NCBI GenBank assembly: GCA_001004105.1
Contig: LCQK01000003.1
Span: 46,805 to 110,804 of the forward strand
Length of the DNA stretch: 64,000 nucleotides
Direction of reading: 5' to 3'
Source: Candidatus Jorgensenbacteria bacterium GW2011_GWB1_50_10
GTDB lineage: Bacteria; Patescibacteriota; Minisyncoccia; UBA6257; GWB1-50-10
Shown: in pieces, positions 10,514 through 48,932 of the stretch
Layout of the letters: each line of letters begins with the position of its first letter
How positions within the stretch are numbered: the first letter of the stretch is position 1
The notes under the pieces: generated by a model
What the model was told of the DNA's origin: nothing
The model's database searches: none
What the model saw: only the letters and a program-made list of their open reading frames with translations
Translations under genes and position numbers: made by a program

Positions 10514-11411
10514 CATGAGAAGTTTACTGGAGATAATCCGGGAAACGGAAAAAGATAAGGTTGCAATAGGCCATTTCAATATTTCCAACCTGGAGCAGTT
10601 AAAGGCGATATCGCATGTCGCGGCGAAACTCAACGTACCGGTCATTATCGGCACATCGGAGGGCGAACGGGACTATATTGGTGTTCATCACGCCGTTGAT
10701 CTCGTCAAAAGTTACAACAAGGAGCACGCAAAAGGAAATTATCGGCTGTTTTTGAACGCCGACCACACCCATACTTTAGAGAACGCGAGGAAAGCGGCTG
10801 AAGTCGGTTATGACGCGATATTATTTGACGGCGGCAAACTGCCCCTTGAAGAAAATATCAGGGCTACGAAAGAAGTCGTAGAAATGGTGAGAAAAATCAA
10901 CAAAAACATCTTAGTTGAAGGTGAGCTGGGCTATATCGGTTCGTCTTCGGAAGTAAGGAAGGAAATTCCGGAAGGGGCGGCGATTAATCCCGGGGATTTG
11001 ACCAGACCGGAGGAAGCAGCGAGGTTCGTTGAAGAAACCGGCGTGGATATGCTTGCGCCGGCGGTGGGGAACATTCACGGCATGTTCGCGAACGCTCCGG
11101 AGCCGCGGCTTGATATAGAACGCATCCGGGAAATCAAGAAAGCGGTTGAAAACCTGCCTGCCGGCAGGCAGGTCCCGCTTGTTTTGCACGGCGCCTCCGG
11201 CAACACCGATGAAGATTTAAGTGTGGCAATCGATGCTGGAATTTCCATAATCCACATTTCCACCGAGCTTCGCGTTGCTTGGCGCAAGGGTTTGGAAGAA
11301 GCTTTGAAGGAGAATCCTGACGAAGTCGCGCCCTACAAGCTGATGCCCGAGGATTTGGCAGAAATGGAGAAAGTGGTGGAGAGAAAATTACGCCTCTTCA
11401 ATAAACTGTAA
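10503..11411 (+). CDS. fba: class II fructose/tagatose-bisphosphate aldolase
   Basis: DHTHT... and LHGASG motifs; carries in-frame palindrome insert (ENLPAGRQ) at 11153-11172. Confidence 0.9.
   Translation: MKFNMRSLLEIIRETEKDKVAIGHFNISNLEQLKAISHVAAKLNVPVIIGTSEGERDYIGVHHAVDLVKSYNKEHAKGNYRLFLNADHTHTLENARKAAEVGYDAILFDGGKLPLEENIRATKEVVEMVRKINKNILVEGELGYIGSSSEVRKEIPEGAAINPGDLTRPEEAARFVEETGVDMLAPAVGNIHGMFANAPEPRLDIERIREIKKAVENLPAGRQVPLVLHGASGNTDEDLSVAIDAGISIIHISTELRVAWRKGLEEALKENPDEVAPYKLMPEDLAEMEKVVERKLRLFNKL
11153..11172. repeat. 20-bp perfect palindrome CCTGCCTGCCGGCAGGCAGG (copy, in-frame in fba; extends to 22 bp with A/T flanks)
   Basis: Exact repeat; encodes LPAGRQ. Confidence 0.9.
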
Positions 11412-11436
11412 GAAGCAAAAGATTAGAAATACGCTT

Positions 11437-11455
11437 ACTATGACATGTCATAGCG
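11437..11455. repeat. 19-bp site ACTATGACATGTCATAGCG (contains 16-bp palindrome CTATGACATGTCATAG), copy 1
   Basis: Identical 19-mer also at 11876-11894; flanks the YerC-like ORF. Confidence 0.7.
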
Positions 11456-11457
11456 CG

Positions 11458-11856
11458 TCAATAATGGTGCATGTAGACTTTTCCGTATTTAGTGCGGCGG
11501 TAGTATCTATAGGGTTTCTTTTTAGAAGGGTGACTGCTGTTGTATACTTTCTTTTTCCGCCCCGTTTTGCCTCGTTCCCGGTAGCTCCGATAACCACTCC
11601 CTTCCAGCGCTTTTTTGATACTGCTTACGGTCTGCGGCGAGAGATGGAGTTCCTCGACAATCTGCACGAATTTTTTCCCTGAATTCATGCGGTCTGCTAC
11701 CGCGGCGCGCATAACAAGATTATGACGTTCGTTGGAGGTGGTAAATAGTTCCAAGAGTTCTCTGGATTCTGATATCTTCTTCCAGCACGCTCTTTCCCAT
11801 TCCTTACGCGAAGAGTACTGGTTGGTTGGCGGCAACGATAATAAATTCCTGGTCAT
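11458..11856 (-). CDS. TrpR/YerC-YecD-like helix-turn-helix DNA-binding protein with basic C-terminal tail
   Basis: ELLELF...N..E...L..R..VA..M.SGKKFVQIVEELHLSPQTVSSIKKAL matches YerC/TrpR-like pattern; ORF bracketed by identical palindromic sites. Confidence 0.4.
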   Translation of the reverse strand: MTRNLLSLPPTNQYSSRKEWERACWKKISESRELLELFTTSNERHNLVMRAAVADRMNSGKKFVQIVEELHLSPQTVSSIKKALEGSGYRSYRERGKTGRKKKVYNSSHPSKKKPYRYYRRTKYGKVYMHHY

Positions 11857-11875
11857 AAGGTAAGTTTAACATATC

Positions 11876-11894
11876 ACTATGACATGTCATAGCG
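11876..11894. repeat. 19-bp site ACTATGACATGTCATAGCG, copy 2 (about 20 nt upstream of YerC-like start codon)
   Basis: Identical to 11437-11455. Confidence 0.7.
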
Positions 11895-11943
11895 TTTTTA
11901 CTGGGTAGTCAGTTGTTTTGTTGCTCTATTCTCGCATATAAAA

Positions 11944-11972
11944 TTGACAAGCTTGTATAAATAGGGTATACT
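11944..11972 (+). promoter_or_regulatory. sigma70-like promoter TTGACA-17nt-TATACT upstream of DGR target gene
   Basis: Consensus -35 hexamer at 11944-11949, -10 at 11967-11972. Confidence 0.5.
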
Positions 11973-12053
11973 TTAGGGCAGTACAATAATGGTGAGTCTG
12001 CGGGTCTGGTAAATGCCGGACTGGGGGACGAACCACAAAAAGAGAGGTACAAG

Positions 12054-12749
12054 ATGGCGAAAAAGACGGATGAACTGGTGCAGTTTGCGGGCCACTTCCA
12101 GTCGCTCGCGACTGCGGTTTCCCGCAACCTCGAAGAGCGCGGCGTAAACGTTGTTGAGGCAATCGCGGAGGCCGCAAAGCCGCAAGGCGCTCGGGCGGTC
12201 GCGAAGATCGTAGACGCGCTCGCCGAACTCGTTGAAAACGGCAAGCGGGTCGTCGGCGCTCTCAATCTCATCGTGGCCGACATCGCCGTGAAGACCGAAC
12301 TCTTCACAAAAAATTCGTTCTTCGGCGAGGGGAGCCCAGTAAAACTCTACATCTGGGATAACTTCCGGAACTGGGTACTCACGGCTATCCTTGAGAATAT
12401 ACCTGCGTTCCAGGGTATGCTCGTGAAGCACCAACTCACGAAGGGGATGTATGACTCGGAGATTCTCTCCGGACTCGGGCATCCCACGCCGTTCTCACCA
12501 ACCGAGTTCGCGGCTGTCATTCGCGACCTCATCTCCAAGCAATCGAGAGGCGAGGAGGGCCTTCTCCTCACGAACGGCTACGCCAACATCTTCTATGTAC
12601 AGTTGCCTGCCGGCGCAGGCGGGGAAGATGCACGCGTGGTCGCGGTGCGCGTGACCTGGAACGCCGGGGACGACGACTGGCACCTGGACGCCTACGGCTT
12701 GGACGACGACGGGTGGGGTGACGGTGTCTGCGTGTTCTCTCGCAGCTGA
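12054..12749 (+). CDS. DGR variable (target) protein with C-terminal VR
   Basis: C-terminal 113 nt (12631-12743) near-identical to TR; ends CVFSRS; paralog at 48342-48932; contains degenerate palindrome insert LPAGAG at 12603-12622. Confidence 0.85.
   Translation: MAKKTDELVQFAGHFQSLATAVSRNLEERGVNVVEAIAEAAKPQGARAVAKIVDALAELVENGKRVVGALNLIVADIAVKTELFTKNSFFGEGSPVKLYIWDNFRNWVLTAILENIPAFQGMLVKHQLTKGMYDSEILSGLGHPTPFSPTEFAAVIRDLISKQSRGEEGLLLTNGYANIFYVQLPAGAGGEDARVVAVRVTWNAGDDDWHLDAYGLDDDGWGDGVCVFSRS
12603..12622. repeat. decayed palindrome-family copy TTGCCTGCCGGCGCAGGCGG inside DGR target 1 (encodes LPAGAG absent from paralog)
   Basis: Target 1 reads VQLPAGAGGEDARVVAV where paralog reads [11 protein letters not shown]. 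Confidence 0.5.
12631..12743 (+). repeat. DGR variable repeat (VR)
   Basis: 113-bp alignment to TR 12998-13110 with 14 mismatches, every one at a TR adenine. Confidence 0.9.
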
Positions 12750-12781
12750 TCTCGGATTTTCGGTCTCTTGGCAATAGTAGT

Positions 12782-12824
12782 GCGCCCCGTTCGAGTTCTT
12801 CGGAACTTGGACGGGGCGTTTTTG
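12782..12824 (+). terminator. GC-rich hairpin plus T-tract immediately downstream of VR (terminator and/or DGR homing-associated hairpin)
   Basis: GCGCCCCGTTCGAGTTC-ttcg-GAACTTGGACGGGGCG followed by TTTTTG. Confidence 0.5.
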
Positions 12825-12997
12825 TTATAATAAAAATGAAATTTTTTGACATCACTGCGGTCAAGGCTTCAGTGGGAAGATTTCAAAAAACAGAAAGGTC
12901 AGCTGGTGTAGGGCGCTAACGGGTGCGAAAGACCCGGCATTAGATGCAACGCTTAGAGGAATCAAAGCGCAGTGGCAAGGGCGGCGCTTTACACGAT

Positions 12998-13110
12998 AAC
13001 GCGTGGTCGCGGTGAACGTGAACTGGAACGCCGAGAACGACGACTGGAACCTGAACGCCAACGGCTTGGACGACGACAGGTGGAATGACGGTAACTGCGT
13101 GTTCTCTCGC
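12998..13110 (+). repeat. DGR template repeat (TR)
   Basis: AAC-codon-rich 113-bp copy of VR; all VR differences map to A in this copy. Confidence 0.9.
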
Positions 13111-13125
13111 CGCTTACCTTTTATA

Positions 13126-13461
13126 TCAGTTCTTTGGGAGCTGTTTTAGCCAACCGCCCAGCATTTTTCCAACTTCGTCAACTTTTCCAGAAAGCGCGGC
13201 GTATTTTTTCGTGTCCAGAGATTTGATTTGCCAGGCAATTTGGAGGAAAAATTTTAGTGAGTCAAGTTTAAAAGAGGAATTCCTGATTTTTGCAAACCGT
13301 TCGGCTGGCGTGAGAGGGGCGGCTGAGAAAATTTCTTCGATAATATCCAAGAAAAGCAAATCTACTTTTACGCCGAGAGTATAGCGCGAGGTTTTGGGAA
13401 AATGAGGCGCGAATTCTTGCCAAAGCGTGTAGGCCGCGATTAGTTTCTGAATAATTGGCAG
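13126..13461 (-). CDS. avd: Avd-like accessory variability determinant (four-helix-bundle, TIGR02436-like); start codon uncertain
   Basis: ...FPKTSRYTLGVKVDLLFLDIIEEI...LKFFLQIAWQIKSLDT...VDEVGKMLGGWLKQ pattern; frame open back to 13482 with no ATG/GTG/TTG (ORF table start is TTG at 13359). Confidence 0.6.
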   Translation of the reverse strand: MPIIQKLIAAYTLWQEFAPHFPKTSRYTLGVKVDLLFLDIIEEIFSAAPLTPAERFAKIRNSSFKLDSLKFFLQIAWQIKSLDTKKYAALSGKVDEVGKMLGGWLKQLPKN

Positions 13462-13498
13462 TTCATTCCGTCGGGGGGGGGTTAGAGGACGGGAATTT

Positions 13499-14482
13499 AT
13501 GAAAATTCAATTGAGCCATAAATTCGAAGATATTATTTCACTGGAAAATCTTTTGGAAGCATGGCGAGAATTTTTGCGCGGCAAGAGAAATAAAAGAGAC
13601 GTTCAGGAATTCTCATCGCGTTTAATGGATAACATTCTATTACTTCACAGCGAACTTCGCAATAAAACCTACAAGCACGGGAAGTACGAAGCCTTTAACA
13701 TCTCCGACCCCAAACCGAGAAACATCCACAAAGCCGCCGTCCGCGACCGCCTACTTCATTACGCTATTTACAGGGTTTTATATCCGTTTTTTGATAAGGT
13801 ATTCATCGCCGATTCTTTTTCCTGCCGTTTGGGAAAAGGGACGCACAGAGCCATCAACCGCTTTAGAACTTTTGCTTATAAAGTGAGTAAAAATAATACC
13901 AAAACCTGCTGGGTTTTAAAGTTGGATATTAGGAAATTCTTCGCGAGTATTGACCATGAAATTTTGATAAAAATTCTTGAGGAATACATACCCGACCAAG
14001 ACATTATCTGGTTGCTGAAGAAAGTGATAGAAAGTTTTTATTCGACCGAACCCGGCAAGGGCCTGCCTTTAGGCAATTTAACCTCCCAGCTTTTAGTAAA
14101 TGTTTACATGAACAAGTTTGACCAATTTGTGAAACACAAGTTCAAGGCCAAGTATTACGTGAGATACGCCGATGATTTTGTGATTGTGTCGAAAAACGGA
14201 ATATGGCTTGAAAGTTTAATTCCGAGAATCAGCGAATTTCTAAACAGAGAATTGAAGTTAAAACTTCACGACGATAAGATATTCATTAAAACTTTAGCTT
14301 CGGGAGTAGATTTCCTTGGCTGGGTTCACTTTCCGGATTACCGAGTTCTGCGAACCACGACCAAAAGAAGAATGTTTAAAAGAATCAAAGAACATCCCGC
14401 GCCGGAAACAATAAATTCTTATTTGGGATTATTAAGGCACGGGAACGCTTATAAATTAAAAAGAAAAATTATTGCTGAATAA
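13499..14482 (+). CDS. DGR reverse transcriptase
   Basis: RT motifs incl. YADDFV; motif 4 LGNLTSQ (I/LGxxxSQ hallmark of DGR RTs); 327 aa without maturase/endonuclease domains. Confidence 0.9.
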
Positions 14483-14498
14483 TTTTTTTTGTGTTTTA

Positions 14499-15242
14499 AT
14501 GGCGTTTATGGAAGCTAGTATTAGCAAGATAATTTTAGAGATTCGGGCGGGCACGGGCGGGGACGAGGCCTCGCTTTTTGCCGGCGATTTGGCGCGGATG
14601 TATCAGAGGTTTGCCGCCCGGCGGGGCTGGAAATTCTCGACGCTCGATGCGAGCGAGTCCGGCGCGCGCGGCTATAAGACGTTCATCGCGGAGATCGGCG
14701 GCCCGGGCGTCTACGAGGCATTGAAGAACGAATCCGGCGTGCACCGGGTGCAGAGAGTGCCGGATACCGAACGGGGCGGCCGGGTGCATACCTCAACCGT
14801 ATCGGTCGCGGTTTTACCCGTAGTGGAAACCAAGGATTTTCAAATTAAAGAAAGCGATTTGGAAGTGACTTTCTCCCGCGCCGGCGGTCCCGGCGGCCAG
14901 AACGTGAACAAAGTGGAAACTGCGGTTCGAATCACCCATAAACCCACCGGCGTTGTCGTAGGTTCCAGGGAAGAACGGAGCCAGCACGCCAATCGCGAGA
15001 AAGCGATGGAGGTCTTGCGGGCCAAGCTTTACGAGGCGCAGAAAGAACAGCAAGTGGGGTCGGTTGCGGAGTTGCGGAGAGGGCAGATCGGCTCGGCCGG
15101 ACGGGCGGAGAAGGTAAGGACATATAATTTTCCGCAGGATAGAATTACAGATCACAGAGTAAGTAAAAAATGGAGTAATATTGAAAAGATATTAGAAGGT
15201 AATCTTGACCCAATCATACAGGCATTTTTGAAAGTCAATTAA
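14499..15242 (+). CDS. prfA: class I peptide chain release factor, RF1-like, lacking N-terminal domain 1
   Basis: [12 protein letters not shown]..., RVQRVPDTE (PxT-type), GGQ motif [28 protein letters not shown]; begins where RF1 domain 2 begins; stop TAA just upstream of the ORF; 3' end is AT-rich and duplicated downstream. Confidence 0.8.
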
Positions 15243-15248
15243 AAAATC

Positions 15249-15268
15249 CCTGCCTGCCGGCAGGCAGG
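15249..15268. repeat. 20-bp perfect palindrome CCTGCCTGCCGGCAGGCAGG (copy, intergenic, 6 nt after prfA stop)
   Basis: Exact 20-mer also at 11153, 17913, 51722, 63521. Confidence 0.9.
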
Positions 15269-15269
15269 C

Positions 15270-15372
15270 GCACCTATAATTTTCCGCAGGACAGGATAAC
15301 CGACCACCGTCAGGGCAAAAAGGTTTCAAATATTCTGAAAGTTCTCGACGGCGATTTGGACAAACTAACCGG
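15270..15372 (+). pseudogene. displaced original 3' end of release factor gene ([35 protein letters not shown])
   Basis: In-frame-translatable GC-rich duplicate of the RF C-terminal coding segment located after the palindrome; homologous to 15127-15242. Confidence 0.6.
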
Positions 15373-16870
15373 CCGTTAAAATTTCTATATCCTTTTGGAA
15401 TTGCTGGGCTTTCACGACCACCGGTTCGCCGTAAGCCCAGCGGTAGTAATACCACCGGCCACCGGCGTAGTATCTTGCCGCGGCGCAGCGTTCGGCAAGG
15501 ACTTGGGCATCGGCGATGTTTCTGTTTTCGCTCACGTAATTCCGGCAAGCGCTGGAATTCAGGGCGTCTTTGAGATACAAGGAAGTCGCAACGAAAGCGT
15601 CGGCGTTTGACCAGGGATTGGAAGGAGTTTGGCCGGTGATTTTCCCAATATAATCCTTGCTTTGGTTATACTCCCAGGAACTGCCGTTTTTCTCCCAACC
15701 GCCGTAGATGGCCCAGGTTGAGGGAATGAATTGGGCCGGGCCCATGGCGCCGCCGTAGGCGCCGTCTCTGTTGGCACAGGAAACCTTCGCCACGGTTGAA
15801 TTCGGGTCAATGCCGAGCTTGGAAAGAATGGCGAGGAAAATCGGAACGTCGCGGGTGGGGTGCATGGCGCCCTGGTAGCTGCAGCGGCCGACGTTTTTCC
15901 CCAGAAGAGATTCTTGCTGAAGAATGGCGAGAAGAAAAGCGGCCCGGACCCCGGTTGCGCCTTCGGCAAGGCGGGCGTATTTATAGGCCTCTTCAAAAGT
16001 GAGTTCGCCGCCTCCCAAAAGACGGAAAATTCTGCTTCTTATTTGAGCGGCAGTGGCTTGGGTTTCTTTCAGGATTTTTTGGTATTCGGATTCTTTGCCT
16101 TTGGTTACGGTCAGAAGCTGATTTTTTTCCGCTTGGGTCGTCGCGACGCTCTTTTTTTGCGATTCCTGATAATTCTTGAGATTTTCCACGTCGGATTTTT
16201 CCGCGGCGAGCTCCTGTTTTTGCTCAAGCAATTCCACCCGAAGGGCGACAACTTCGTTTAAGGCCGTCCGGATGTTGGACTGAACCAGGGTTATGTTGTT
16301 GACGTCACCGAAGAAATCCGAAAGATTGGCATTGGCCAGCAACACCTCGATCAAGCTTTGGGCGTCGGCTTCATAGAGGTCGCGGACGCCTCTCGCAAGG
16401 GCCGTTTTATGGCCGTCAATTCTGTTTTCGGTAACGTTTATGTTCTTTTGAGTGCTCGTTATTTCGTCGTCCAATTTCTGGAGATTCAGGTTGACCGCTT
16501 TAATTTGGAGGTTCAACTGGCTGATTTTGGCGTTCAGGGATTTTATTTCGTTAGTGAGGGTTTTGCCCTGTTTTTGATATTCGGCAACCGTACTTTGATG
16601 TTCAAGGATTTGGCGCTCCAATTCGGCAAGTTCGTTTTCAAGTTTCTCCCGTTCTTCCTGGCTGGTCGCGCCGTTTTCCGTGCCCGTCATCTCGGCTGCC
16701 TGGGTCGGAGTGTTCAGTTTGGTTCCGAGAAGAAGCCCCGAAAAAGCGAGGAGAACCAAAACTCCTCCTACGAATTTGATTGATTTGGTAAGAGGGATCC
16801 GGATAGCGGTCGAATAGGAGAGATTGAGACGTCTTTTACGGCTGGCCTTAATATCGTAGATTTTGCGCAT
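15365..16870 (-). CDS. membrane-anchored coiled-coil protein with C-terminal lytic transglycosylase (MltB/SLT_2-like) domain
   Basis: N-terminal TM, long heptad-like Q/E/K/L region, C-terminal [13 protein letters not shown] motif. Confidence 0.75.
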
Positions 16871-18135: not shown

Positions 18136-18167
18136 AATTTATTTTGAATTTGGAAAGCCAAATTCTT

Positions 18168-19651
<1,484 letters not shown>

Positions 19652-46251: not shown

Positions 46252-48228
46252 ATGGGTCAATTTCAAATCACAAAAACATTTCAGCCGGACGGTGACCAAC
46301 CAAAAGCGATAAAGGCGCTTGTTGAAGGGCTAAATTATGGTTACGGAAACCAGACGCTTTTGGGCGTGACCGGTTCGGGCAAAACCTTTACGGTTGCAAA
46401 TGTCATCGAAAAAATCGGCAAGCCCACACTCTACATTGCTCACAACAAGACCCTGGCGGCCCAGCTCTGCAATGAGCTCCGGGAGTTTTTTCCGGGAAAT
46501 TCTGTCCATTATTTCGTCTCCTACTACGACTACTATCAGCCGGAGGCCTACATGCCCATAACTGACACTTATATCGGCAAGGAAGCGATGATTAACGACG
46601 AGATAGACAAGTTGCGCCACGCGGCGACAACTGCGCTTTTGACGCGCAATGACGTGATTGTGGTCGCGTCCGTCTCCTGCATTTACGGCCTTGGCGCGCC
46701 CGAGGTTTACGCCGAGAATATCTTCCATTTCAAAGCCGGCGACAAAGTGGACCGTTCCAAATTCGTGCGCAAGCTCGTGGAATTGCAGTTTAAGCGGACG
46801 AGCGCCGACCTGAAACGCGGCACTTTCCGGTTGCGGGGCGACAATTGGGAAATCATGCCGCCGGATCGGGAAGTGATTTACAATCTGGAATTGGAGAAAG
46901 GAAAAATAAAAACCATTTACGAAATTGACCCGGTAAAAGGTTTTCAAAAGGAAAAAACACCCACCCTTTCTGAAATTTACATTGCCCCCGCTAGACATTT
47001 CATCACACCTTTACCGGAGCGCGAGCGGGCGATTAAAGCGATTGAAGCGGAACTTGCAGAGCGGCTGAAATATTTTGAAAGGGAGGGAAAACTGCTTGAG
47101 GCCGAGCGGCTGGAACGCCGGACAAGAGGGGACTTAGCCATGATTCGGGAAATCGGCTACTGCAACGGCATTGAGAATTATTCGCGCCATCTCTCCGGCC
47201 GCCGAGCTGGTGAGCCGCCGGAGACGCTGCTTGATTATTTTCCAAAGGACTTCTTGACCGTGATTGACGAATCGCATGTTACTGTGCCTCAACTTCACGG
47301 TATGTACGAGGGTGATGCCTCGCGGAAGAAAACGCTCATTGAATTCGGTTTCCGGCTGCCTTCCGCCGCCGACAATCGGCCGCTTATGTTTCCGGAATTC
47401 GAAAGCAAAGTGGGGCAGGTAATTTACACTTCGGCGACCCCGGGCCCGTACGAGAGGAGAAAAAGCAATCAGATCGTAGAGCAAATCATCCGGCCGACCG
47501 GTTTGGTTGACCCGGAAATAGTTATTCGACCGGCTCGAGGCCAGGTTGACGATTTGATTCCGAGAATTAAAGAAAGAGTAGACGTGAAAGAGCGCGTTTT
47601 AGTGACCACGCTTACCAAGCGAATGGCCGAAGATTTAAGTTCTTATTTGGAAGAGCAGGGCATTAAAGTGACGTATCTCCACAGCGACGTTAAAACTTTG
47701 GATAGAATCAGGATTTTGACGAATTTGAGAAGAGGTAATTTCGACGTTCTGGTCGGCGTGAATCTGCTCCGCGAAGGACTGGACCTGCCGGAAGTTTCGC
47801 TTGTCGCGATTTTGGACGCGGATAAGGAGGGGTTTCTGCGTTCGGAAACCTCGCTTATCCAGACCATTGGCCGGGCCTCCCGCAATGTCAGTGGCCAAGT
47901 TTTGATTTATGCCGATAACATTACCGGTTCGGTAAAGCGCGCCGTGGATGAAACTGAACGCCGCCGCAAAATCCAGATTGAATATAACTTGCGTCACGGC
48001 ATCACGCCGAAAACAATCGTGAAGAAAATCACCGACATCGTGCCGGTCGAGGAAATCCTGAATTTGGAAATGAAACCCTTGCCGCGCTCTAAAGCGGAAA
48101 TTAAGAAAATAATCGCCGGAAAAGAAAAAGAAATGAGAGAAGCAGCAAGTAGACTTGATTTTGAACTCGCGGCAGTTTTAAGAGATGAAATTAAAGCTTT
48201 ATCTAAGAAGGCGGGGAAGCAGTTTTGA
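46252..48228 (+). CDS. uvrB: excinuclease ABC subunit B
   Basis: GDQP.AI..L start, helicase motifs [13 protein letters not shown]-terminal UVR domain [13 protein letters not shown]. Confidence 0.95.
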
Positions 48229-48341
48229 GAAGTTGACAAGATTAGATTTTTGTGCTAAAGCTTAAACTAGCACGAACTGGCAACCTAAAGCCCCAACGAA
48301 TGTTGAGGGTGAGAGGAAACCATAACAAGGAGAGGCAAAGA

Positions 48342-48932
48342 ATGATGAAGGGAACGAACGGACTCGAGTGGCTTGCGGACCGCTGGCAGTCGGTTGCGAC
48401 TGCAGTTCCCCGCCGCTTTGAGAATCGTGGAGTTAGCGGCGGGGAGGTAATTGCCGCCGTAACCAAGCCCCAGACCAGGAGTATTGTGGTCCAGACCGAG
48501 CCCTTTGCTAAGGACTCGTTCTTTGGGGAGAGCGGTCCCGCGGAGCTCTGCATTTGGGACAACTTCCGAACCCAGGTGCTATCAGCAGTTTCCGAGACCG
48601 TGCCCGCGTTTCGAGGCACGCTCACGAGAACTGAGCTTGAGGAGCACATGGGGGACTCCGAGATTTTCGCCAACGGGACATCCCGGCCGCTCCTCTCGCC
48701 GGACGATTTTGTTGCGGTCGTCCGTGACCTCATCTCCCGCCAGCCGAGAGGTGAGAGGGGAATCCTTCTCACAAACGGGGATGCCAACATCTTCCATGTG
48801 CAGCCGGAGGATGGACCTGTGGTTGCGGTGCGTGGGCGCTGGCGCGTTGGTCTCGGCGGTTGGAGCCTGCGCGCGTATGGCCGGGACGACGTCAGATGGC
48901 TCAAAGGCCACTGCGTGTTCTCCCGCGGCTGA
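48342..48932 (+). CDS. DGR variable-protein paralog (second, diverged target) inserted between uvrB and uvrA
   Basis: Homologous along its length to 12054-12749 (e.g. [36 protein letters not shown]...); ends CVFSRG; start taken at ATG 48342 after AAGGAGAGG. Confidence 0.75.
48819..48926 (+). repeat. diverged VR-like repeat (about 68% identity to TR 13003-13110)
   Basis: 19 of 36 mismatches vs TR at TR adenines; TR AAC codons correspond to CGC/CGT/CTC/AGC/TAT/CAC; 3' GC-clamp CTGCGTGTTCTC conserved. Confidence 0.6.

Follow-up and report, generated by a model that had tools for sequence, protein, structure and literature searches.

How can a gene for a translation factor be followed, a few bases behind its stop codon, by a second version of its own ending, and which of the two endings did the organism inherit? 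This question is raised by prfA, the gene for peptide chain release factor 1 (RF1), which terminates protein synthesis, in a 64,000-nt stretch of the tiny groundwater bacterium Candidatus Jorgensenbacteria bacterium GW2011_GWB1_50_10 (assembly GCA_001004105.1, contig LCQK01000003.1, positions 46,805 to 110,804 of the forward strand), which as a whole is referred to here as the window. Comparison with related genomes indicates that the downstream copy is the vertically inherited terminus of prfA and that the AT-rich terminus now in use is xenologous, that is, derived from another lineage. The foreign tail was most likely acquired by recombination, linked to the insertion of a 20-nt palindrome close behind the present stop codon. 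The native body, the foreign graft, the native ending and the inserted repeat can all be read within 270 bases.

Layout of the prfA 3' end

The prfA open reading frame (ORF) begins at 14472 or 14499 on the plus strand and encodes 247 aa from the latter position, with the stop codon TAA at 15240-15242. Its native body extends from 14499 to the Glu codon GAG at 15108-15110 and is followed by a replacement terminus of 132 nt (15111-15242; 43 codons and the TAA), which is set apart by third-position GC content (GC3), DNA matches and codon choice. Six nucleotides behind the stop (AAAATC, 15243-15248) lies a perfect 20-nt palindrome (CCTGCCTGCCGGCAGGCAGG, 15249-15268), just as a sequence-only reading of this DNA had described. 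The sequence then continues with CGC ACC TAT AAT..., the remainder of a second RF1 ending that extends on the plus strand from 15269 to its own TAA at 15377-15379 and encodes 36 aa. The last four codons and the stop codon of a convergent gene for a coiled-coil/lytic transglycosylase-like protein (15365-16870, minus strand) overlap this displaced terminus.

The two tail peptides match at 67.5% over 40 aa (E = 2e-13), and in an all-against-all six-frame comparison they were the sole case in the window of a gene tail repeated behind its gene. A self-comparison of the region, which had been proposed as a check, recovered a direct repeat (15120-15155 and 15272-15307, 83% identical) with a 17-nt core, TATAATTTTCCGCAGGA, that is identical in both copies (15123-15139 and 15275-15291, plus strand) and encodes the invariant YNFPQD. 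The homology of about 45 nt noted earlier between the copies reflects no more than the invariant RF1 motif. The earlier description of a duplicate right after the palindrome was likewise correct in part: an RF1-like second ending is there, but it is out of frame with the upstream gene, from which it is offset by 152 nt.

The bases that flank the palindrome, AAAATC on the left (Lys-Ile) and CGCACC on the right (Arg-Thr), are codons of the conserved EKIRTYNFP motif, and therefore the palindrome lies inside the old gene copy. This old copy resumes exactly where the present gene leaves it, after GAG 15108-15110. The duplicated region consequently starts at the Lys codon at 15111, further upstream than the position 15127 first given for it, and the palindrome does not separate two copies, as had been supposed, but interrupts the second one between its Ile and Arg codons, with AAAATC as the residual native Lys-Ile codons. 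The family consensus at this point is ...(S/A)EKIRTYNFP..., and the closest relatives, L004 and L005 (two Logan contigs encoding the protein P0051), read GAG AAA ATC CGC ACC TAT AAT TTT CCG. When 15111-15242 and 15249-15268 were deleted, an uninterrupted gene was obtained whose junction (GAG AAA ATC CGC ACC TAT AAT) is that of L004 and of the family consensus; the intact ancestral junction sequence is GAGAAAATCCGCACC. RF1 genes on 109 unrelated stretches of metagenome DNA contain the exact string AAAATCCGCACCTATAATTTTCCG. When metagenome contigs were scanned with the pattern AAAATC-N(0-20)-CGCACCTATAATTTTCCG, 109 stretches were returned, and all 80 of those listed were gapless. By these comparisons, the uninterrupted AAAATC-CGCACC string is ordinary RF1 sequence in many organisms.

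The ancestral gene is now interrupted by two insertions 6 nt apart, namely the foreign RF1 segment and the palindrome. Within the A-run at 15241-15246 one A can be assigned to either side, and a split into 132 + 20 nt or 131 + 21 nt is equally possible. The effect of the palindrome on the old gene differs between the two: a net gain of 20 nt is a frameshift, and a gain of 21 nt adds seven residues, with NPCLPAGR replacing the Ile. The frame of the displaced tail is open back through the palindrome. The whole arrangement was base-for-base identical in 14 contigs from three independent assemblies and sources, which, together with a shared core of just 17 nt, rules out an assembly artefact.

Origin of the two endings

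The claim that the 3' end of prfA has been replaced by one with AT-rich codons unlike the rest of the gene was borne out by composition. GC3 is 0.25 in the last 40 codons, 0.71 in the rest of the gene and 0.54 in the displaced remnant. In a composition profile, the tail-minus-body difference of -0.46 was the most extreme of 52 genes (mean -0.015, sd 0.11; about 4 sd), and the choice of Arg, Thr and Gly codons switches exactly at 15111. The first four tail codons are donor-type (AAG GTA AGG ACA, compared with AAG ATA AGG ACT in the AT-rich L007), and the same four codons in the second copy are native-type (AAA ATC/CGC ACC), as in L004.

DNA matches also set the tail apart from the body. By blastn, the gene body was closest to L004/L005 (77% over 587 nt; other loci at most 72.5%), and so was the displaced end (85.6% over 104 nt); the sequence reconstructed across the junction aligned to the same contigs without gaps at 86.6% over 119 nt. 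In sliding windows, the reconstructed gene was closest to L004 throughout, and the present tail dropped to 51-64% against it. Among 175 RF1 3' ends, the remnant was most similar to L004/L005 (87%; next best 72%), whereas the present tail was most similar to L007 (74%), then to genomes of 37-41% GC (70-72%), and was 60% identical to L004. The two endings also differ in their last residues: the present tail has the canonical family ending ...DPI(I/V)xAF, which the remnant does not, and the remnant has the rare short ending ...DKL(T/I)G that it has in common with P0051. Over its final 15 nt, the remnant runs into the end of the convergent gene, the C-terminus of which is as long as in a relative; this is the arrangement to be expected of native DNA. 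The sequence-only reading was thus right that the downstream segment aligns to release factor C-termini and represents the ancestral one. Body and remnant share their nearest relative and the tail does not, and therefore the tail is foreign rather than a local duplicate.

A local origin would have the tail arise by tandem duplication and divergence, or by conversion, either by the adjacent reverse transcriptase (RT) of a diversity-generating retroelement (DGR) or by the RF2 paralogue. The two copies are indeed adjacent and in the same orientation, the RT gene of the DGR ends 17 nt upstream of prfA, and prfA-prfB conversions have been reported (PMC4530459). But the identity between the copies is 60.8% overall and 50% within the variable part, a distance like that between different genera, and the new tail has residues absent from the old one. 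The identity of 60.8% and the DPIIxAF extension rule out tandem duplication with divergence. The differences between tail and remnant involve all bases and not just adenines as DGR mutagenesis requires, so that neither this mutagenesis nor copying by the reverse transcriptase is the source; and conversion by RF2 is ruled out by the tail being RF1-type. We consider any local origin extremely improbable. Import from a phage was rejected as well: release factor genes on viral contigs were at most 52% identical, and none consisted of a tail only.

Two other gene ends were seen in the course of these comparisons. On L198, a 1.3-kb contig without an RF1 body, an orphan RF1 3' end (749-916; the last ~55 codons, ...DPIIQAFAKTGKK) lies directly behind an ApbA-like gene and overlaps it, which reflects either a rearrangement or a chimeric contig. 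In the window, the 3' end of uvrB (48079-48228) shows the second-largest drop in composition (GC3 of 0.28 in the last 40 codons, 0.59 in the rest); it lies directly beside the inserted second target of the DGR, and no displaced remnant was visible behind it. A further imported ending or composition alone may account for the drop.

Exchange point and the integrase model

An element that integrates into the 3' end of a gene while supplying a substitute terminus, as integrative elements do at tRNA genes, was the explanation first offered for this locus. The prophage e14 of E. coli is the protein-gene parallel: its inserted DNA supplies the 3' end of icd, the original C-terminal fragment remains downstream as the pseudogene icdC, and a hybrid gene can be restored when the two copies recombine (PMC13626634). 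At prfA, such an element would have carried the new 3' end on its attP, crossed over in the shared core and later been almost wholly deleted. A gene followed by a substitute tail and then by the displaced one, with an identical core of 17 nt, does resemble icd/e14/icdC, and a mobile island adjoins prfA on its other side. Nevertheless, neither an integrase nor the body of an element was found. Between the stop codon and the second copy there are 26 nt (AAAATC and the palindrome), and the ORFs and Pfam matches on either side belong to a reverse transcriptase, RF1 and a transglycosylase-like protein. The exchange point is not in the shared core, because the 12 nt upstream of it are already donor-type in the first copy and native-type in the second. 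In addition, no related RF1 tail fragments were found on viral contigs. We therefore abandon this explanation as highly improbable.

The likeness to e14 thus lies in the outcome, a coding gene whose 3' end comes from inserted DNA and whose original fragment persists downstream. The differences are that e14 spans 15 kb and encodes its own integrase and that the icd ends are nearly identical, whereas here the insert is 152 nt without a recombinase, the ends are 61% identical and the exchange took place outside the core. For annotators, the caution is that a displaced gene end beside a repeat does not imply an integrase-type element.

A dispersed palindrome that inserts into genes

The palindrome is present in the window as five exact and two near copies (seven per 64 kb), with none expected from shuffled sequence. 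The other copies are at 11153, 17036, 17913, 51722, 51945 and 63521, and a decayed copy lies at about 12600-12623. Copies lie within the aldolase, L25, UvrC (twice) and TraG/VirD4-like genes, and one is intergenic, between rpmE and the 16S rRNA promoter region. The coding copies add seven residues and are always in the same frame (LPAGRQ, MPTGRQ, VPTGRQ); in the frame of the RF1 remnant, the product would be CLPAGR. L005, the closest relative, and L006-L008 have an empty site in the aldolase gene, with AVKIPLVLHG in place of AVENLPAGRQVPLVLHG of the window, and solved aldolases have the same 7-residue gap. UvrC carries a 7-aa insertion at a palindrome copy with respect to solved homologues, and the first DGR target carries one (LPAGAGG) at the decayed palindrome-like copy, with nothing at that place in its paralogue, the second target. 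The string AAAATCC is present in both reconstructed targets, aldolase and RF1. Judging from these copies and empty sites, the palindrome is a resident dispersed repeat that inserts into coding sequences on its own.

The dispersed palindromes of Rickettsia (Rickettsia palindromic elements, about 100-150 nt) and the repetitive extragenic palindromic (REP) repeats also occur in frame in protein genes. The present family resembles them in its near-identical dispersed copies and in its empty sites in relatives, and differs in that the repeat is 20-21 nt long and lacks conserved flanks. No transposase that goes with it was identified, no search aimed at one having been made. Full-text searches of the literature for the palindrome sequence or for LPAGRQ returned nothing. 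That a resident 20-base palindrome repeatedly inserts into coding sequence is a point of interest in itself, and the family is possibly worth more attention than the single RF1 locus.

Outside the window, the exact palindrome was found in 35 stretches of viral contigs (IMG/VR, L200-L234) of 38-68% GC, several of which carry multiple copies; some of them may be hairpins that arose by convergence and do not belong to this repeat. On L224 (2239-2330), it forms the long variable arm of a predicted tRNA-Met, on L231 it lies in an apparent tRNA D-loop, and on L169 a copy with one mismatch (9710) is in frame in prmC.

Probable recombination at the prfA locus

The palindrome lies 6 nt from the junction of the foreign tail, a proximity that for an unrelated insertion has a chance of ~0.1-0.6% given seven copies per 64 kb. 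Because this chance is as low as ~0.1%, we infer that the insertions of the tail and of the palindrome are linked. The foreign segment of 132 nt (or 131) directly follows the Glu codon in homologous register and contributes 43 codons and a stop. Its left junction keeps the register at the Lys codon, and its right junction has at most the microhomology of the A-run.

The reading that we favour, to which we give a little less than an even chance on the sequence evidence, is damage by the repeat followed by rescue with the RF1 ending of an AT-richer relative. The palindrome would have damaged the stretch immediately ahead of the invariant RTYNFP motif, and DNA from the relative would then have recombined in, or have done so within the same repair event. 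The left junction would be guided by homology, and the right junction illegitimate or mediated by microhomology, in the A-run beside the hairpin-forming palindrome; such junctions may have come about through homology-facilitated illegitimate recombination or through template switching at a stalled fork. Translation would now stop ahead of the damaged stretch, with the native tail left as dead DNA, and an integrase-type element would not be involved.

Alternatively, the foreign tail came first and the palindrome landed later, by chance, in the dead remnant. In a compact genome, non-functional DNA is scarce and surviving insertions concentrate there, and a net length of +20 needs no compensation in dead DNA; moreover, AAAATCC resembles the aldolase target, so that a site preference alone could have placed the palindrome. 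Yet two unrelated events would have met within 6 nt, against the chance given above, and the clean in-register insertion at exactly this point would be left unexplained. We regard this course of events as improbable.

On the minus strand, the palindrome is followed by GATTTTTT (15241-15248), which fits the pattern of an intrinsic terminator 97 nt after the stop codon of the convergent gene, and palindrome and T-run may now serve as its terminator. This pattern bears on a one-step import, in which the tail of a donor RF1 gene, its stop codon, an A-rich spacer and the palindrome as the donor's terminator hairpin were inserted together at the homologous Lys codon; the fragment would have ended at the palindrome, 4-6 nt of recipient sequence would have been replaced, and the gene would never have been broken. 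Such an import is a single event without a non-functional intermediate, the terminator pattern for a convergent gene fits it, relatives have hairpin terminators in this spacer, and palindromes are prone to breakage, which makes a fragment end at this one plausible. It requires, however, a donor with the same 20-mer directly after the prfA stop, and this was found in none of about 190 release factor loci. AAAATC and CGCACC would recreate the Lys-Ile-Arg-Thr codons of L004 by coincidence, and the palindrome family is resident in this genome. A one-step import is possible but, in our view, rather doubtful.

Several points weigh against damage followed by rescue. A presumably essential gene hit by a +20 insertion would have to be rescued at once, and the +21 alternative rests on the ambiguous A-run. 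AAAATC could be the A-rich spacer of the donor before its terminator hairpin, in which case patch and palindrome arrived together. There is little extended identity between donor and recipient at the left junction that could have served as an anchor, and the window holds a single such tail-replacement locus. Among 175 RF1 3' ends, no donor of the tail was found (best match 74%), and no intermediate allele, with the palindrome only or the patch only, was found either, the next-best protein match being 85% in the body.

In the metagenome scan for donor or intermediate alleles, the 80 listed loci were just uninterrupted RF1 genes from many phyla, and no other tail duplication occurred in 80 genome loci. 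The palindrome was absent near the RF1 ends of about 190 loci, relatives included. When the tail alone or the old-frame ORF served as the protein query, only short ORFs were returned; those looked up were a partial ORF at a contig end, the orphan RF1 end of L198 and RF1 genes split into small ORFs, and three of the split-RF1 matches were on contigs with heavily fragmented gene calls.

A broader extension of damage and rescue is that the 20-nt palindrome is an active miniature mobile repeat of these ultra-small bacteria that invades even essential genes, its hairpin or a break in it promoting the capture of gene fragments from other lineages. We think this unlikely to hold. If true, the RF1 locus would be the first essential gene caught after being bypass-repaired with foreign DNA following such an insertion, and the repeat would be a portable recombination hotspot for exchange between lineages.

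Known parallels

The two kinds of junction recall homology-facilitated illegitimate recombination during natural transformation, in which short linear foreign DNA is joined through one homologous and one illegitimate junction (PMC3240628). The in-register left junction and the non-homologous right junction at prfA would fit such a process; the differences are the scant anchor identity to the left and the fact that almost no recipient DNA was lost.

Replacement of a gene end with retention of the old one is an outcome already known, and what is found here is that outcome without a recombinase and beside a miniature palindromic repeat. Integrative conjugative elements of the SXT/R391 family insert in prfC, the gene for RF3, and supply a replacement gene end, so that the gene stays functional; they act at its 5' end, by means of a tyrosine recombinase, and are roughly 100 kb long. 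Both cases concern a release factor gene end replaced by inserted DNA, at prfA the 3' end and without a recombinase. In the mitochondrial atp6 of Allomyces macrogynus, the resident gene continues in frame into a foreign C-terminal coding segment, and its own displaced C-terminus is still present downstream; the insert there carries a free-standing endonuclease gene that explains its mobility, and no such gene is present in the prfA insert.

The locus reveals no new molecular machine. It is a clean natural case in which a grafted foreign ending keeps an essential translation gene functional, and it shows that lineages of the Candidate Phyla Radiation exchange short segments even within core genes.

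The RF1 protein

The release factor encoded by the present gene is 100% identical to peptide chain release factor 1 of Candidatus Jorgensenbacteria bacterium GW2011_GWA1_48_13. Pfam matches were obtained to PCRF (148 bits) and RF-1 (132 bits); the RF-1 domain is complete, and the PCRF match covers profile positions 100-194 only, the C-terminal half. The NCBIfam prfA models gave 349-361 bits, compared with 236 for prfB, indicating RF1 and not RF2, with prfA scores that lie below the equivalog cut-offs. The translation contains the GGQ motif and an RF1-type P-x-T recognition tripeptide (PDT).

The N-terminal domain 1 is missing from this RF1, as it is from more than 100 homologues of 240-250 aa in Patescibacteria (Jorgensen-, Brenner-, Paceibacteria and others). 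Because so many homologues have this same form, an RF1 without domain 1 is to be read as a trait of the clade and not as damage. Truncation of prfA by the upstream retroelement was ruled out, since the short form is usual among these homologues and the 5' end is homologous to L004. Release factor 1 without domain 1 is standard in a large group of Patescibacteria (14499-15242 and the homologues P0002-P0120), and a text search found no paper that describes it there.

Genomic neighbourhood

In the relatives L004, L005, L006 and L008, the aldolase gene lies directly upstream of prfA, and the order prfA, then the lytic transglycosylase-like (SLT) and L25 genes in the opposite orientation, is conserved in relatives. 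Because of this arrangement, the ~3.1 kb between aldolase and prfA in the window (11412-14498, plus strand), which hold a helix-turn-helix (HTH) gene and a DGR, are an insertion in this genome. No evidence was found that links this insertion to the replacement of the tail.

The DGR at 12054-14482 is complete, with a variable repeat (VR, ~12635-12750), a template repeat (TR, ~13003-13115) and the RT gene (13499-14482); RT and bAvd were recognized by Pfam. The bAvd-like ORF (13126-13359, 77 aa) is on the minus strand, opposite to the DGR. In the TR/VR alignment, differences occur only at adenines of the TR. A paralogue of the DGR target lies at 48252-48932 (likely ATG at ~48343), between uvrB and uvrA. 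It is 46.6% identical to the first target, and its own variable-repeat-like end aligns to the TR, as a remote second target of the same retroelement.

The HTH gene (Trp-repressor-like, 132 aa, ORF 11458-11856, minus strand) is bracketed by identical 19-nt copies of ACTATGACATGTCATAGCG, itself palindromic, at 11437-11455 and 11876-11894. Gene and repeats look like a small mobile unit, and a homologue of the HTH gene (57% identical) occurs near L25 in L007. Further downstream, the 16S rRNA gene at 18166-19651 is a full-length bacterial one (Rfam SSU positions 1-1533, 1421 bits), without large insertions.

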